Shown piece after piece: positions 10,021-21,646 of a stretch of DNA of 64,000 nt; position 1 is the first letter of the stretch, and each line of letters starts with the position of its first letter. The position numbers and the translations under genes were made by a program. The notes below the pieces were generated by a model that was not told the origin of the DNA, searched no databases, and worked only from the letters and a program-made list of their open reading frames with translations. Location of the stretch: UHGV virus genome UHGV-1351772. One strand, given 5' to 3'. Source of the stretch: a virus.

Positions 10021-10667
10021 CGAAAGAAGAAATCCGTCGTCGTTATTTTGCGCACGATTTACCGATTGACCGTCATGGTAACTACATGGAGAAAATCGGT
10101 AGCGAAGATCACGGCCGTACAGGGTTTTGTGCGTTACTGCACTATAAGTTGATTGATGGGATGTCTGATCGCGAAGCATTGGAACAAATGCGTAACTACG
10201 ACATGTCTGAAATCGAAGCACGGTTTACGCTACAGAAAGCGAAAGACTTTGTTAACGACACGTTGGGGATTGACCTGGAAGAAATTCGTACAGGTTTACG
10301 TTCCACAGTGCGGTACATCTTTACCGATGTTCAGAAAATTCTAAGCGCTTTGGAATTCCGTTATCAGGATGCACGCTATGCTGAGATTCAGGTAGGTGAT
10401 TTCACTTTCCAGGCAGATGAGAAGTCACAGGTAGCACTGAGTCGTTATATCCAGTCAGAAACTGCGCCAGCGTATTGGTTAACGGCTAACAACACCCGTA
10501 TCGAACCGTTTACGTTAGAACAGTGCAAGACGTTGCTGGCAGCAATCGTTGAGCGCGATCAAAGACTACACCACGCAATGTCTGAGCAGAAAAGAGAAGT
10601 CAGAGCTTGGGCTGAAGCACGTGATTACGATTCAATTAAAGCGTTTGCGTTAGAGCAAGGGCTGTAA
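9996..10667 (+). CDS. hypothetical protein (operon member)
   Basis: AAAGGAG RBS 7 nt upstream; last gene before a bidirectional terminator. Confidence 0.55.
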   Translation: MSATGEGLTKEEIRRRYFAHDLPIDRHGNYMEKIGSEDHGRTGFCALLHYKLIDGMSDREALEQMRNYDMSEIEARFTLQKAKDFVNDTLGIDLEEIRTGLRSTVRYIFTDVQKILSALEFRYQDARYAEIQVGDFTFQADEKSQVALSRYIQSETAPAYWLTANNTRIEPFTLEQCKTLLAAIVERDQRLHHAMSEQKREVRAWAEARDYDSIKAFALEQGL

Positions 10668-10688
10668 TCGACAGCGAAAAAAAATAGT

Positions 10689-10725
10689 ATACCTACCTCC
10701 TATTACGGGAGGTAGGTATTTTTTC
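10689..10725. terminator. bidirectional rho-independent terminator between convergent genes
   Basis: Perfect 11-bp stem TACCTACCTCC / GGAGGTAGGTA flanked by an A-run upstream and a T-run downstream. Confidence 0.7.
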
Positions 10726-11256
10726 TTAGGACGTAAAACCGTCCAGCTCACCGTTGGTGGTGGCCAGGTCAATACGATTATCAACAACTTTCGGCGTAAT
10801 TACGAAAGTTGCCATTACACCCGGTTTATATCGGAGGTTCTTTTCAGTAACGGTACACGTTACCGTACGCAGAGTGACGTTATCATGTTCGTCTTTCTGG
10901 TCTTCGGTGTTGTACACAACGTCGCCTGGTGCGATAGCATCGTTCGGTTTAACTTTATTGATGTAATATTGTAACCAAGCGCGCAGTTCATTTTCTTGAA
11001 CCCAGCGAGACAGATCGTCAGTTAGTTCAATACGGCCTACAACACCCGGTTCCAGACGATCGTAATGCAGTTCGATTGCGCCTTTGAAATTCTCAGAACC
11101 CGGTAGTGCAGTCATGGTAACTTTGGTATTCTTACCTTCGCCTTCCAGCGCAGTAGGGAGACCAAAGGACACTTCTTTATCAGTTACCTGATGTGGTAGC
11201 TCAGTGTTAGCAGCATTATAAAGCGCGACCAACATCATCTGGTTAGTAGCTGCCAT
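10726..11256 (-). CDS. hypothetical protein, small-protein paralog family (member 1 of 6)
   Basis: 176 aa; shares with 11323..11853 the pattern NTK(V/I)T(M/L)TA...(S/Q)NFKG...HY.RL and the C-terminal ELDGFT. Confidence 0.6.
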   Translation of the reverse strand: MAATNQMMLVALYNAANTELPHQVTDKEVSFGLPTALEGEGKNTKVTMTALPGSENFKGAIELHYDRLEPGVVGRIELTDDLSRWVQENELRAWLQYYINKVKPNDAIAPGDVVYNTEDQKDEHDNVTLRTVTCTVTEKNLRYKPGVMATFVITPKVVDNRIDLATTNGELDGFTS

Positions 11257-11304
11257 TATCTTAAATCCTCAATAGTACGAGTTAAAGAAATATCGGGGAG
11301 GTTA

Positions 11305-11314
11305 CCCCCCCCCC
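11305..11314. repeat. homopolymeric C10 tract (G10 on the minus strand), intergenic
   Basis: Ten consecutive C read directly; lies about 50 nt upstream of the minus-strand start at 11256. Confidence 0.9.
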
Positions 11315-11322
11315 GACTTTAA

Positions 11323-11853
11323 TTATTCTTTAGGAGACGGTGCGGTGAAGCCATCCAGTTCACCTTCCAAACCGCTCAGTGCTACTTTCTCAGGAGCCGG
11401 AGGAGTAACTTTATACGTCGCGACAGTACCAGGCAGGAACTTCAAGTGGCCAGCCACAACCGTTACCACGTAAATGGTTTTGCCTTCTTCTTCACGGGAA
11501 ATAGTTTGCAGGTCGTTTTCACCGAACTCGTCATCGGTGTACCCTTTCTCAGCCATGGCTGCGTTAACTTTCGCCAGGATCTTCGTTGGTGAATCGAAAT
11601 CGGTAGTAGGTGCAGTTACTTCAACTTCACCAACGATGTCGCAGGAAAGACGAGTATAGTGGAATTCTTTCTCGCCTTTGAAGTTCTGGCTTTCTGCCTT
11701 GGCGGTCAGAGTAATTTTAGTGTTGCGGCCAGCTTCTCCGGTGAACTCAGCGACAGCACTAAAATTAACATCATTTACAGTCAGCTTAGAAGCAGTTTGG
11801 TTGTTTTTAGCAATTACAATCTCGATAAGCTGCTGTTGAAAAGTTTTAGCCAT
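11323..11853 (-). CDS. hypothetical protein, small-protein paralog family (member 2 of 6)
   Basis: 176 aa tandem paralog of 10726..11256. Confidence 0.6.
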   Translation of the reverse strand: MAKTFQQQLIEIVIAKNNQTASKLTVNDVNFSAVAEFTGEAGRNTKITLTAKAESQNFKGEKEFHYTRLSCDIVGEVEVTAPTTDFDSPTKILAKVNAAMAEKGYTDDEFGENDLQTISREEEGKTIYVVTVVAGHLKFLPGTVATYKVTPPAPEKVALSGLEGELDGFTAPSPKE

Positions 11854-11992
11854 TGTTTTACCTCGTAAGTAGTATGGGTGGTTTGCATAGTATTGTTCGG
11901 ATTATAGAAGTGTTGTTAATAGTTATGACAGACAGCAGTAAGGGTTGTCTGTAAAATTATTATTTTTTAACTTTTTATAGAAGGGTGAAAAC

Positions 11993-12472
11993 ATGCTAAA
12001 ACGTTTTCTACTTGTTGTAACTGCAGCACTTTCGTTGGCAAGCTGTGCCCTACAACCCACCGCTAACGGTCAATTCTCGACTGTACCCGTAGAGCCACAC
12101 GACATGGTTATTTACACCTGTATGGGTGTAGAGCAAGATTTTGTAAATTATAAACCTGTCGTCAATTCGACTAACCTAATGTTAGGCTCAGTAACTGTAA
12201 TCGATACTGGTGCTAACTGGGTAGCCACCTGGCCAAATGGTAAGATTGAGTCACCCCAACTTTATAAAGATCTATTAGGTAAAGTTAATGGGAATATCGA
12301 TCCTATCACGGGACAACGTTACTACCGTGTAAATGGGTTACTTTCAAAAACACCAACATTTGCGTATTCTACTTTAGAATATAAAACGGGTGATGGTAAA
12401 GGCATTACTTTCTTCCACTGTAAGGAAGGTGTAGCTCCTGACACTGGAACAATGCTCCATCCTGCGGAATAA
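11993..12472 (+). CDS. putative lipoprotein (moron-like; candidate superinfection-exclusion factor)
   Basis: Signal peptide with lipobox LASC (MLKRFLLVVTAALSLASC); isolated plus-strand gene with AT-rich upstream region and its own terminator. Confidence 0.6.
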   Translation: MLKRFLLVVTAALSLASCALQPTANGQFSTVPVEPHDMVIYTCMGVEQDFVNYKPVVNSTNLMLGSVTVIDTGANWVATWPNGKIESPQLYKDLLGKVNGNIDPITGQRYYRVNGLLSKTPTFAYSTLEYKTGDGKGITFFHCKEGVAPDTGTMLHPAE

Positions 12473-12480
12473 TAAAAACT

Positions 12481-12520
12481 ACCCTACTCCTTATCGGGAG
12501 TAGGGTATATTCATTTTAAC
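12481..12520 (+). terminator. rho-independent terminator after the lipoprotein gene
   Basis: Stem ACCCTACTCC / GGAGTAGGGT followed by a T-rich stretch. Confidence 0.5.
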
Positions 12521-12590
12521 CGCTAAATCGTGCGTAAAACGCGTTCTAAGCGTCTTTATACAAATTAAGGTATAAACACCTTAGAAATAG

Positions 12591-13106
12591 TTAAATCTCG
12601 ACTAAGGCGCTCCAATCGATTGGTTTTTGCTTAACAACCTTCACAGTGCCACGATTTGGTGACCAGAAAGTAATGTTAGGCTGGTTACGAACGTCGATGT
12701 GTAACCAACTGATGTCACATTCAATAAAGTGAATGAACGGAAACTCGTCGGGGTTAGCAGCGATATAGTCGTGAACCTGTTTTACGGTGCTATCCAACAA
12801 CGTTGCATCAATGGCGTTACCGAATTTGTGCTGACTTCCTGAATCGGCGTAAAGCTGTAACGCACGTTGTTTATAACTACCACCCTTAGGCTTTTCTTGA
12901 TTAATAAAGAAATCTAAGGTTCTTAGTCCGCGTTGTTGTGAAGCGGTTGAGTTAATCACCATTCTACCGAAACGATTACGAATCTGTTGTAGCGAAATCA
13001 TTAACAACGGGTTCATAAACCGGATTGCAGAATCGCCGTATTTGGCAATATAAGACTGTGGTACTAACTCTCTGAGTTTAAAATTACTCGGATTTGGATG
13101 AAACAT
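12591..13106 (-). CDS. peptidase M15-like peptidoglycan hydrolase (L-Ala-D-Glu endopeptidase-type lysin)
   Basis: Zn-binding signature SQHKFGNAID (S-x-H-x-x-G-x-A-x-D) and downstream WLHID, as in M15 phage endolysins. Confidence 0.65.
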   Translation of the reverse strand: MFHPNPSNFKLRELVPQSYIAKYGDSAIRFMNPLLMISLQQIRNRFGRMVINSTASQQRGLRTLDFFINQEKPKGGSYKQRALQLYADSGSQHKFGNAIDATLLDSTVKQVHDYIAANPDEFPFIHFIECDISWLHIDVRNQPNITFWSPNRGTVKVVKQKPIDWSALVEI

Positions 13107-13758
13107 CTTCCCTCCCTGACAGAAAAGCGCGTTTGATGTTCAGGTATTTGACATTAACGGGTTGTTCTGTGGTGATATCAATACGTTCGTGGTTAGGGAT
13201 TGCAGGTTCCTTAAACTCGCGAACGAATAAATAGTTTCGATTGTAATCTAACGTACGAAACGCGTTAGTGCTGTAGGATGGTTTTGCATTAGGATCTACG
13301 TAGGCATCCCAGCCGAATTCAACAACGGCCTTATAAAATGTTTGGCAGATATAAGGCGAGATTTCCAACGACTGCATAATACGCAGGAATGTTAAGTCAG
13401 AGAACTCTTTATCGATAATACGCGAAACGTTACCACCCGGTGTCATGGGATAGCTACGCTCCGTGTTACATTTTTGATAGAGTAAGTCGTGAATACACGC
13501 AGCCGGTGCCCAAGGCCCGTCAGGATGGAAAATTCCCTGTAAGCGTTCGGGTATCGACGCTAAGTCCGTTACGAACCCTTTCGGAGCGGTTAACCACAGT
13601 TGCGTGTCAGGTAATACACCGGTTAAATAAACCGCACGGTCTAAGTGTACGTGGTCGTGATAAATCTCACGTAACGTAAACGGATAATGGTAATCCTCCG
13701 TTAATACAAACCACTTATTATCTAAACGTTTATATTGAAGCTTTTCCATTACCCACAC
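13084..13758 (-). CDS. DUF1353-like protein
   Basis: Motifs GFVTDLASIP and IHDLLY recalled as typical of DUF1353. Confidence 0.45.
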   Translation of the reverse strand: MWVMEKLQYKRLDNKWFVLTEDYHYPFTLREIYHDHVHLDRAVYLTGVLPDTQLWLTAPKGFVTDLASIPERLQGIFHPDGPWAPAACIHDLLYQKCNTERSYPMTPGGNVSRIIDKEFSDLTFLRIMQSLEISPYICQTFYKAVVEFGWDAYVDPNAKPSYSTNAFRTLDYNRNYLFVREFKEPAIPNHERIDITTEQPVNVKYLNIKRAFLSGREDVSSKSE

Positions 13759-13865
13759 CTTTCCTTACAAAAACCAGAAGAATTCTTGCCCACGTTTTTC
13801 GTCTTTACGTTTTCGACCAGACGTTAACGCTTTCCACAATAACACTAAGAGTTTAGCAAACCAGT

Positions 13866-14456
13866 TCATTTTACTAACCCCGCTTTCACCGCATAATCTG
13901 CCATTTCTCTGAACACGCGGCCGTACCAGCCGTAGGTGTATTTCTCGTTTCTCTTACGTTTTTCGGAGATTTCCGTGTAGTAAGTTACTTGGTGCGAGAT
14001 TAACGCAAAGATTAAAATGCTTAACCCTTTATCTTTACGGTATTTCAGATACGCGTTCAACGCGCCCAGCGTTTTAGGCCCCATTCCACCGTCAGCATCG
14101 ATGTCCGCGTAGAGTTTACCTTCGTTGTTCAACACGTTGAGAATACGCTGGAGCGATTTCACGCAGTTGGCACGACCTGCGTTAATTCCGAAATCAAACA
14201 TCCGGTCAGCCAGTAAAGGCGAGATAGCAAAAATCTCATCGAGTTTGAGTTTCTTCCACCAACCACGATCGTAAATGTCAAAAGCTTGAACACGGGTAAG
14301 GTCTTTCATTTTCCCTTTATAACCATACTCACGTGCAGTCGTTACCGTGATACCGTGGTTCGTTTCTGCACCTAAGTCGTCAGGGTCGTTGACGTACCCG
14401 CCTTCTAAATCCGTTTTGGATTCAATAATACCTTCTTTAGTCCAACGTTCAGCCAT
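13866..14456 (-). CDS. GH108-family lysozyme-like protein with C-terminal peptidoglycan-binding domain
   Basis: N-terminal EGGYVNDPDD...ETNHGIT signature (GH108-like); C-terminal region resembles PG_binding_3. Confidence 0.65.
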   Translation of the reverse strand: MAERWTKEGIIESKTDLEGGYVNDPDDLGAETNHGITVTTAREYGYKGKMKDLTRVQAFDIYDRGWWKKLKLDEIFAISPLLADRMFDFGINAGRANCVKSLQRILNVLNNEGKLYADIDADGGMGPKTLGALNAYLKYRKDKGLSILIFALISHQVTYYTEISEKRKRNEKYTYGWYGRVFREMADYAVKAGLVK

Positions 14457-14474
14457 TTTGTTTAACTCCCATTT

Positions 14475-14517
14475 TACACAAAAAAGAAAAACGTTGGGTG
14501 GGTTTTACCCCACCCAA
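14475..14517 (-). terminator. rho-independent terminator (minus strand)
   Basis: Stem GGGTGGG / CCCACCC followed on the minus strand by a T-run. Confidence 0.6.
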
Positions 14518-14520
14518 ATC

Positions 14521-15018
14521 TTACTTGGATTTTCGTGCACGAGTTGTACGTGCTTTAGCTGCTTTTGGCGCAGGTTCAGCATCTTCAGCAGTTTTACGTG
14601 CAACGCGCACCGTAAAACCGCCTACCCAGGTTAAACATTCAGGGCGGAAGAAAATACCGTGTTCGATTGCGCTACCGTCTAACGGTAACTCGCCGACCTG
14701 CTCTACCCACACGTCGTCTTCTGTAAGGGTTAGGCTGTACTGCTCGTTAATGACGGGCAGTAAGTCAGCGGTAGTCGTTGCAGATTCTACCAACAGCTTC
14801 GGTAATACGTTCAGGAAATATAAACCTGCGTCAATGCGGTTATACTGGAACGTTTGTTCGTTAGTGTAACCGAGATTCTTAATTGACGCAACCGTAATTT
14901 CGGTATTGTAAGTACCGGTGGTCACAACCGGATCGCCCAGCGTGACTTTGGCGGTGTCAAGCTCAGCGTCTGGGTTAGCCTTTTTAATAAGGTCGAAGAT
15001 AGTTTCTTGACTGGTCAT
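14521..15018 (-). CDS. hypothetical protein, small-protein paralog family (member 3 of 6)
   Basis: 165 aa; N-terminal (I/L)xxLI(K/N)...TxxDV pattern and ADLL..IN..Y.L block shared with 15032..15880. Confidence 0.55.
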   Translation of the reverse strand: MTSQETIFDLIKKANPDAELDTAKVTLGDPVVTTGTYNTEITVASIKNLGYTNEQTFQYNRIDAGLYFLNVLPKLLVESATTTADLLPVINEQYSLTLTEDDVWVEQVGELPLDGSAIEHGIFFRPECLTWVGGFTVRVARKTAEDAEPAPKAAKARTTRARKSK

Positions 15019-21079: not shown

Positions 21080-21595
21080 TTACCCCCGGTGCAAGAAAAT
21101 ACGGTTAGTGTTTTCGAATTTCGGTTCTGTCCACTCCAGTTCCCAGTAAGCCTGGTTAATATCGCGAGACGTGAGTTTCAAATTCGAAACGCCGGGGATT
21201 TCGATCTGCTGCAGTAAATTAATAATCGTCACCAGCTCTTTACGAGGACGGTTCCAGATAACTTCAAGATACTCTTTCAGACGCTCTGGGTAAGCAACGG
21301 GGCGAATATAAACTAGCCCAGTGGGATACTCAATTGCTGAGGGTGTTCTTGGCACTAACCAAACCCAGTCTTTTAATAGCGGCCCTGAGTGGTAGTTAGA
21401 GAGTTGAGTAAGCGCATTTGCGACCGAACAACAACGGAAGTAGGTGATATCCCAATCGTGTTCATGGCAATTTCGCGCAACGATAACTTTTAAACGGTCA
21501 ATAGGTTTACCGTCGATGGTCGTAACACCAGGTTGATTCGCCAGAATCTGACGTTCACGTTTAGTATAAAGATTCATGTTAATATTTACTGACAT
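21080..21595 (-). CDS. hypothetical protein
   Basis: 171-aa ORF; GGAG RBS upstream of the start. Confidence 0.5.
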   Translation of the reverse strand: MSVNINMNLYTKRERQILANQPGVTTIDGKPIDRLKVIVARNCHEHDWDITYFRCCSVANALTQLSNYHSGPLLKDWVWLVPRTPSAIEYPTGLVYIRPVAYPERLKEYLEVIWNRPRKELVTIINLLQQIEIPGVSNLKLTSRDINQAYWELEWTEPKFENTNRIFLHRG

Positions 21596-21621
21596 TTAAT
21601 GCTCCTTTAGGTAAATGGTGT

Positions 21622-21631
21622 GGGGGGGGGG
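21622..21631. repeat. homopolymeric G10 tract (C10 on the minus strand), intergenic
   Basis: Ten consecutive G read directly; about 27 nt upstream of the minus-strand start at 21595. Confidence 0.9.
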
Positions 21632-21646
21632 TAGGTTAATGCTTCG

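Follow-up and report, generated by a model that had tools for sequence, protein, structure and literature searches.

A conserved lipoprotein gene with a putative late promoter in a Seoulvirus-like nucleus-forming jumbo phage: a candidate for envelope exclusion or progeny protection

Most of the outer-membrane lipoproteins made by phages are o-spanins. The periplasmic protein Spackle of phage T4 (Sp, gp61.3), which is made early and is not a lipoprotein, blocks the tail lysozyme of superinfecting virions, and the T5 lipoprotein Llp is reportedly also expressed early. Co-infection and competition between nucleus-forming jumbo phages are an active research topic, and to our knowledge nothing is known about late envelope management or superinfection exclusion by these phages. 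Among the described systems that come closest to the gene analyzed here, Llp is a small lipoprotein whose gene adjoins that of pb5 (PMC9586334), o-spanin genes lie within or immediately after the i-spanin gene (PMC12894885), and PhiA, PliC, and MliC are periplasmic or lipid-anchored eight-stranded barrels that carry a stabilizing disulfide and insert an SGxxY loop into the active site of lysozyme (PMC8334348). Here, we analyzed a lipoprotein gene (11993..12472, plus strand) in a 64,000-nucleotide stretch of the virus genome UHGV-1351772 (hereafter the window). It is very likely a functional, autonomously transcribed late gene that encodes an outer-membrane-tethered periplasmic lipoprotein of a Seoulvirus-like nucleus-forming jumbo phage. 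The explanation that we prefer as a whole, a late lipoprotein with a role in exclusion or protection, is possible but stays short of probable.

The gene and the parts of its product are as follows (aa, amino acids; ORF, open reading frame; dN/dS, ratio of nonsynonymous to synonymous substitution rates; pLDDT, predicted local distance difference test):

11993..12472, plus strand: lipoprotein coding sequence, 159 aa, ATG start, PHROG 9559 (ORF; profile match, E = 5e-65; dN/dS 0.08–0.15)
11981..11988, plus strand: Shine-Dalgarno-like AAGGGTGA (direct sequence reading)
11993..12046, plus strand: signal peptide II with lipobox L-A-S-C, Cys18 codon at 12044-12046, +2 = Ala (PS51257-type pattern)
12047..12100, plus strand: flexible tether, residues 19-36, low confidence (pLDDT ~58 over residues 11-30)
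12101..12430, plus strand: predicted eight-stranded antiparallel beta-barrel, residues ~37-146 (pLDDT > 90 over most of the barrel)
12248..12292, plus strand: most conserved motif ESPQLYKDLLGKVNG, residues 86-100, in the connection of strands 4 and 5 (invariant positions in nine sequences)

The signal sequence MLKRFLLVVTAALSLAS followed by C18 is a textbook lipoprotein signal, and the N-terminus MLKRFLLVVTAALSLASC satisfies the PROSITE PS51257-type lipobox rule (Lys3/Arg4, hydrophobic core, L-A-S-C18), applied here as a K/R n-region, a hydrophobic core, and [LVI][ASTVI][GAS]C with the Cys at position 15-35. No other credible lipobox ORF was found within the 64-kb window. An earlier note on this DNA had proposed a plus-strand lipoprotein gene at this place and suggested signal-peptide prediction as a check; the ORF and its lipobox confirm the gene, and the same rule is passed by 37 of the 39 family members, with Cys18 invariant. 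In Escherichia coli, Asp at +2 is the inner-membrane retention signal of the Lol sorting system, and at this position the family carries A, S, T, Q, V, or K (Ala in the window protein) and Asp in none. Judging by these residues, the protein would be lipidated and sorted to the outer membrane. Export by Sec, lipidation at Cys18, and cleavage by signal peptidase II would leave a mature lipoprotein of 141 aa, in which a tether of ~18 residues would hold a compact eight-stranded beta-barrel in the periplasm.

The window protein matches the profile of PHROG 9559 with E = 5.2e-65 (residues 2-150 on profile positions 2-152 of 166), Goslar gp88 matches it with 3e-21, and by tblastn the family was found in 55 phage records, all of them enterobacterial chimalliviruses. 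The tblastn homologs (34–64% identity) include SPN3US gp159 (AEP83992), Erwinia phage Asesino gp174, Wellington gp172, proteins of phiEaH2, Machina/Huxley, and ChrisDB, as well as Goslar gp88 (YP_009820773, 34%); identity with SPN3US gp159 is just 48%, and the closest protein cluster stands at 96%. Both Seoulvirus and Goslarvirus belong to the Chimalliviridae, the nucleus-forming jumbo phages. An exhaustive profile search of 1.84 billion representatives (clusters at 50% identity) gave only 18 hits, so the family is small and restricted to phages, and no clearly bacterial (non-phage) homolog was found among these representatives. UniProt names some of the members "Lipoprotein" automatically, and two third-party annotations of metagenome-assembled genomes call the protein "adhesin".

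The members of PHROG 9559 share the lipobox, three invariant cysteines, and the motifs SPQL[YF] and RYYR, and most of them also have a divergent head-protein partner gene and the sequence TATGAC upstream. The three cysteines (that of the lipobox and two others) are invariant across 28 sequences and then across 12 more diverse ones, in which SPQL[YF], RYYR, and GxGxG..F.C persist too, and all members conforming to the lipobox rule have two Cys, no more and no fewer, in the mature part. Within the most conserved motif, E86, P88, Q89, L90, Y91, K92, D93, L95, G96, K97, and G100 are invariant among nine sequences, and SPQL[YF] is kept in distant members.

The lipoprotein gene is under purifying selection, with dN/dS of 0.13–0.15 against close relatives and 0.08 against a more distant allele. 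In comparisons with four close relatives, protein identity is 94–100% for the flanking genes, 92, 91, 73, and 72% for the lipoprotein, and 49–88% for its head-protein partner. As synonymous divergence (dS) is saturated for the 72–73% alleles and amounts to 0.2–1.4 in the flanking genes, we interpret the divergence of the lipoprotein as recombinational replacement by a divergent allele under continuing purifying selection. Modular allele replacement of this kind is typical of host-interaction genes and is not specific to any one function; that the lipoprotein diverges more than its flanks among close relatives fits a host- or phage-interaction role. The partner gene (11323..11853) was itself observed to be a divergence hotspot.

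The AlphaFold2 model, built on the 28-sequence alignment (mean pLDDT 82, predicted template modeling score 0.70), consists of a signal helix, the tether, and the barrel. In this model, the invariant Cys43 (12119-12121) sits in strand 1 and Cys143 (12419-12421) in strand 8, where they probably form a disulfide that clamps the barrel; the invariant ESPQLYKDLLGK joins strands 4 and 5 as a predicted loop that is likely a binding surface. Foldseek gave no significant match in the PDB (all TM-scores < 0.42), a sequence-profile search of the PDB returned chance hits only (e.g., P5C reductase, E = 0.017), and the matches in BFVD were confined to the family itself, unnamed proteins, and a weak RB49 "LprI-like" hit.

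The predicted fold introduces a first rival explanation, which we consider unlikely: a periplasmic regulator or inhibitor of peptidoglycan hydrolases, with a barrel like those of MliC, PliC, and PhiA and a function like that of T4 Spackle. Its target would be the GH108 muramidase or the M15 peptidase of the phage itself, or else the tail lysin of incoming virions, and its effect could be to hold back wall damage that comes too early, to avert lysis from without, or to keep superinfecting phages from penetrating the wall. The window protein shares with MliC and PliC the hallmarks of an eight-stranded antiparallel barrel (here predicted) with Cys in the first and last strands (PMC8334348), and its most conserved motif contains S-P-Q-L-Y, i.e., S-P-Q-L-[YF] in the family, with the same spacing as the lysozyme-binding SGxxY but with Pro in place of Gly. 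However, hhalign leaves this loop unaligned and gives probabilities of 1% and 0.2% against a MliC/PliC alignment (PDB-derived relatives plus E. coli MliC verified against PDB 2F09), Pfam MliC (PF09864) was not hit at E ≤ 10 by 12 diverse members, Foldseek found no significant PDB match, and many unrelated eight-stranded barrels score equally well or better (Cap15 8.2, BFA1 7.2, nitrobindin 7.1, NHBA 6.9). PhiA itself showed no inhibition in vitro (PMC8334348). The resemblance suggested by the model is weak, a lead and not membership. A narrower form of the idea, that the family is a lipid-anchored inhibitor of MliC/PliC fold which neutralizes the wall-degrading enzymes of incoming virions (M15/gp158 or a tail lysin), appears improbable to us; if true, it would amount to a late-acting, Spackle-like system of exclusion and protection against lysis from without, built from a bacterial anti-lysozyme scaffold. 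T4 Spackle is a conceptual analog only and is unrelated to the family.

The signals that flank the gene, and the partner gene with which it shares its upstream region, are:

11854..11992, no strand: divergent intergenic region, 139 bp, 68% A+T, between the lipoprotein gene and the minus-strand head-protein gene 11323..11853 (composition; holds the only two blocks conserved across genera)
11323..11853, minus strand: divergent partner gene, 176 aa, DUF7941-N/PHROG 4862, ortholog of SPN3US head protein gp160 (profile matches, synteny)
11921..11929, plus strand: conserved TTATGACAG, putative phage late-type promoter or transcription start element with G11927 as candidate +1 (TATGAC invariant in 14 distinct lineages)
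11928..11952, plus strand: hairpin directly after the TATG motif, putative 5'-terminal mRNA stem-loop (-12.2 kcal/mol, z = -5.0)
11880..11889, minus strand: conserved TATGCAAACC, ~36 nt upstream of the divergent head-protein gene, its putative late promoter (GGTGCATA block conserved)
12480..12507, no strand: hairpin like an intrinsic terminator in both directions, between the convergent genes for the lipoprotein and the M15 peptidase (z = -6.3 and -5.3)

In all loci where the two genes diverge, TATGAC stands 35–71 nt ahead of the start codon, the rest of the upstream region being poorly conserved, and the block upstream of the head-protein gene has the consensus TATGCA(A/C)CC. A hairpin of differing sequence, starting 0–3 nt from the same G, folds in ~16 of 19 distinct relatives. 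RNAalifold gave no consensus on the ungapped alignment of these 5' hairpins, whose stem and loop lengths vary between lineages, so that their support comes from the per-sequence folds. The module of TATGAC and hairpin was also seen at homologous positions in the loci L001, L002, L004-L019, and L026-L030 of our set. As TATG is not enriched in the intergenic DNA of the window, it is its conservation that counts as evidence. In phiKZ, the non-virion RNA polymerase recognizes late promoters whose defining element is T(-3)ATG(+1) (PMC7598289). On the basis of this likeness and of the conserved TATGAC with its hairpin, we infer that the TATG motif acts as a promoter of the phage late type, from which a transcript starting at G11927 (+1) would carry a 5' stem-loop. 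Sigma-70-like matches in the upstream region are at chance level (6 found vs. 6.8 expected from shuffles).

Expression data exist for the Goslar homolog: the reads of HOV27_gp088 fell from 358/426/425 in the controls to 6/11/3 under knockdown of the nuclear-shell protein ChmA (bioRxiv 10.1101/2023.09.20.558163, Supplementary Table 2), i.e., log2 fold changes of -4.5, -3.6, and -6.0, while early genes rose by ~+1 (bioRxiv 10.1101/2023.09.20.558163). This collapse places the Goslar homolog in the nucleus-dependent (late) program. For the window phage itself, it is the TATG motif that points to late expression, and the element of TATGAC plus hairpin may help to define late promoters in enterobacterial chimalliviruses.

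Downstream, the terminator hairpin begins 8 bases past the stop codon and has a 12-bp stem (-20.4 kcal/mol, z = -6.3 vs. shuffles) followed by a U-rich tail; its strength is the same on the opposite strand, and SPN3US, Asesino, and STsAS keep it with altered sequence. The earlier note had described a gene standing alone, with an AT-rich upstream region and a terminator of its own, opposite in orientation to all its neighbors, and had read this as classic moron architecture. The gene probably does form a transcription unit of its own; it lies between minus-strand genes, and the strong hairpin behind it is like a terminator, although a bidirectional one. The opposite orientation holds locally, as the genes 10726..11256 and 11323..11853 and all genes downstream to ~56.7 kb are on the minus strand, but not overall, because a nine-gene plus-strand block ends at 10667, just 1.3 kb upstream of the lipoprotein gene region. 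The upstream region (11854-11992) is indeed AT-rich (68% A+T vs. 55.6% in the window and a mean of 61% in its intergenic DNA) but not private, being a divergent promoter region shared with the partner gene.

The step from this architecture to a moron did not hold. Under such an explanation the gene would be a recently acquired passenger, transcribed by the host RNA polymerase and benefiting the carrier cell as lambda Bor does, which we regard as very improbable. A stand-alone unit with an AT-rich upstream region and a terminator is what a moron would look like, GC at third codon positions is low (0.325, z = -2.5), close relatives swap alleles by recombination, and many isolate assemblies of Salmonella, Shigella, and E. 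coli contain contigs of this phage group (~220–228 kb). On the other hand, the gene is conserved in at least five Chimalliviridae genera together with its partner gene and promoter motif, has a dN/dS of 0.08–0.15 and an ordinary overall GC content (0.419 vs. a gene mean of 0.442, z = -0.7), is preceded by the phage-type TATGAC with no sigma-70 match above chance, belongs to a family restricted to enterobacterial chimalliviruses among the representatives searched, and has a Goslar homolog whose transcription depends on the phage nucleus. The moron reading is largely refuted by this conservation; the gene is a conserved accessory gene of one chimallivirus branch. As to its occurrence, near-identical proteins were found on the ~220–228-kb contigs in IMG/VR and in many isolate assemblies of Salmonella enterica, Shigella sonnei, and E. 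coli, the latter being also where the clusters of its relatives (P0001 and P0002, with 119 and 308 members) occur, which suggests frequent occurrence with cultured isolates, as a carrier state or pseudolysogeny.

The neighborhood is colinear with that of Salmonella phage SPN3US and its relatives (the best DNA match among deposited phages being 75%) and contains radical-SAM genes, DUF7941 virion paralogs, a GH108 + PG_binding_3 muramidase, a DUF1353 protein, and an M15-type peptidase. Two tandem 176-aa paralogs of gp160 (DUF7941 N-terminal part) lie at 10726..11256 and 11323..11853, both on the minus strand. The constant unit is the divergent pair, with the PHROG 4862 gene running leftward and the lipoprotein gene rightward, which is maintained through rearrangements and was seen in the window, SPN3US, STsAS, Asesino, Machina, ChrisDB, Wellington, and two metagenomic contigs; the lipoprotein gene stands at the homologous site in every Seoulvirus, Erskinevirus, Machinavirus, and Wellingtonvirus locus examined. 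In SPN3US, gp160 is by mass spectrometry an abundant head protein; it is also present in tailless particles and is estimated at > 300 copies per capsid. The lipoprotein gp159 does not appear in the same virion mass-spectrometry table, in which its neighbor gp160 is abundant, and a role as virion component was rejected on account of this absence.

The hydrolase genes bear on the regulator of peptidoglycan hydrolases introduced above. A cassette of GH108, a 30-44-aa ORF, and DUF1353, in some loci with M15, is convergent with and adjoins the lipoprotein gene in the window, SPN3US, Asesino, and Wellington, and in the distant relative L025 (36% identity) the lipoprotein gene closes a plus-strand virion block and converges on M15 and DUF1353; moreover, the M15 protein of SPN3US (gp158) occurs in virions, outside the head and in low abundance. 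The co-occurrence fails both ways, however. The more distant Cronobacter phage CR5 (Derbicusvirus) has DUF1353, M15, and a gp160-like gene and no lipoprotein gene, Goslar has the lipoprotein gene with neither DUF1353 nor M15 near it, and the Asesino locus is without M15, while in Machina and ChrisDB the cassette is inverted and lies on the other side of the head-protein genes. The lipoprotein as an obligate partner of M15 or DUF1353 was ruled out by the gene content of CR5, Goslar, and Asesino, and the possibility that Goslar gp87 is a diverged DUF1353 protein was rejected on testing. In the window, the gene convergent with the lipoprotein gene (12591-13106, minus strand) encodes 171 aa with no Pfam hit; the protein is 59% identical to a Peptidase_M15_3-positive homolog and shows by eye a SxHxxGxAxD...WxH pattern that resembles the LAS metallopeptidase motif. 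As the ortholog of SPN3US gp158, it may be a virion-borne cell-wall peptidase.

The same neighbors, and the late transcript of the Goslar homolog, would also fit a lysis accessory at the outer membrane, i.e., an atypical o-spanin-like component or a modulator of spanins or lysis timing that is made late together with endolysin-type genes. We judge this rather improbable. Like the o-spanins (lambda Rz1, phiKZ gp141.1), the product appears to be a late phage outer-membrane lipoprotein, its gene is near those of GH108, M15, and a small membrane-peptide-like ORF, some of the Erwinia-phage homologs have a Pro/Ala/Thr-rich C-terminal tail, and the phiKZ o-spanin is also large (120 codons; PMC12894885). 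What separates it from them is the predicted globular barrel instead of an extended Pro-rich chain, and the lack of an adjoining i-spanin gene: none was found upstream of the lipoprotein gene in any lineage examined, the upstream gene being divergent in the window and most relatives, the tail-fiber assembly gene (Tfa) in Goslar, and a virion protein gene in L025. A unimolecular spanin was ruled out, as the C-terminus (...EGVAPDTGTMLHPAE) is hydrophilic and without a C-terminal transmembrane segment. In addition, much better candidates for a spanin pair exist elsewhere in SPN3US. A scan of its whole genome showed three annotated lipobox genes, gp159, gp180, and gp205, the last of which (lipobox LLTGC) directly follows gp204, a protein with a transmembrane segment at its N-terminus, a stretch resembling a coiled coil, and a tail rich in Pro. 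By their sequences, gp204 and gp205 (JN641803.1 180017-180976, L034) look like an unannotated i-spanin/o-spanin pair, and since this arrangement is textbook for spanins, the window lipoprotein is unlikely to be an o-spanin. In the same genome, gp180-gp182 (165783-167095) are clustered, one being a lipoprotein and the other two signal-peptide proteins.

The small ORF of the cassette is represented in the window by a 34-aa ORF, MNWFAKLLVLLWKALTSGRKRKDEKRGQEFFWFL, at 13765-13869 (minus strand), the ATG of which overlaps the GH108 stop codon (ATGA). An ORF of 30-44 aa occupies the equivalent position in Asesino (gp172), Machina (gp168), ChrisDB (gp179), Wellington (gp174), and two metagenomic contigs. 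With its hydrophobic N-terminus, basic middle, and aromatic C-terminus, the product is a possible membrane-active lysis peptide (holin- or disruptin-like).

The earlier note had pointed out that lipobox proteins of lytic-type phages commonly block the phage receptor (superinfection exclusion, as by T5 Llp) or shield progeny from the debris of lysed cells. Tentatively, we propose that the lipoprotein, made late, modifies the envelope of the cell already infected, for exclusion or for the protection of progeny. From its anchor in the outer membrane, it would face the periplasm and there engage a component of the host's outer membrane or else the machinery with which an arriving virion penetrates the cell wall. 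Cell and debris alike would then make poor targets for further phage attack. The logic would be that of T5 Llp and T4 Spackle, with a protein that is unrelated to both and late, not early. This proposal is supported by the predicted location at the periplasmic side of the outer membrane and by the Goslar locus, where the lipoprotein gene directly follows, on the same strand, a P1 S-like tail fiber gene and a tail-fiber assembly gene, which is the site of exclusion lipoproteins in T5 and other coliphages (PMC9586334) and recalls the position of llp beside the pb5 gene. Such adjacency to a receptor-binding protein, as known from Llp and Cor, is present in Goslar only; in the window and SPN3US the neighbor is a gp160-type head protein.

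Several points weigh against exclusion or progeny protection. There is no sequence or fold match to Llp or Cor, nor any match of the family in Pfam, NCBIfam, and PADLOC scans, and the mature 141-aa product with its predicted beta-barrel differs from the small Llp. In the window and in most relatives, the neighbors are genes for a head protein and for peptidoglycan hydrolases instead of a receptor-binding protein. The timing differs as well, Llp being described as early and the Goslar homolog being nucleus-dependent (log2 fold changes of -3.6 to -6.0), and late expression cannot protect the early phase of infection. The strong conservation of the motif across Salmonella, Escherichia, and Erwinia phages argues for a conserved target rather than a variable receptor, and the absence of the gene from related phages such as CR5 indicates that it is dispensable for the basic cycle. 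Superinfection exclusion is nevertheless a plausible proposal, and we rank late exclusion or protection, still only a possibility, before the unlikely regulation of peptidoglycan hydrolases, this in turn before the still less probable accessory role in lysis, and a true moron, the most improbable of the four, last.

The small and sharply conserved family offers a cheap and well-defined test object: its lipobox is clear, one loop is invariant, and SPN3US can serve as a genetic model and Goslar as a model characterized by RNA-seq. If its function turned out to be mundane or dispensable, it would be one more conserved hypothetical gene.

A few further observations were made around the locus. In the convergent intergenic region downstream of the terminator, a conserved block AACGC..TCTAAG (12530-12560) is kept at homologous positions (L001, L002, and L004) in SPN3US, Asesino, and STsAS, even though Asesino is without the M15 gene; the block has no match in Rfam, a scan of 10500-14600 having found nothing. 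Homopolymer tracts were found in two intergenic hairpin or leader regions, a G10 (11292-11317) inside a terminator-like hairpin between the two head-protein paralogs and a C10 (~21600-21640) upstream of the gene 21080..21595, and could be prone to slippage or to sequencing errors. Finally, the proteins of a second group of DUF7941 paralogs (family B) are assigned to the head in SPN3US by mass spectrometry, and their counterparts in relatives (L027, 10745-12922; L003, 6226-8838) carry a GP38 tail-fiber adhesin domain or a non-contractile-tail-sheath TIM-barrel domain (Goslar gp86), which hints that family B proteins are surface-exposed, host-binding head decorations.

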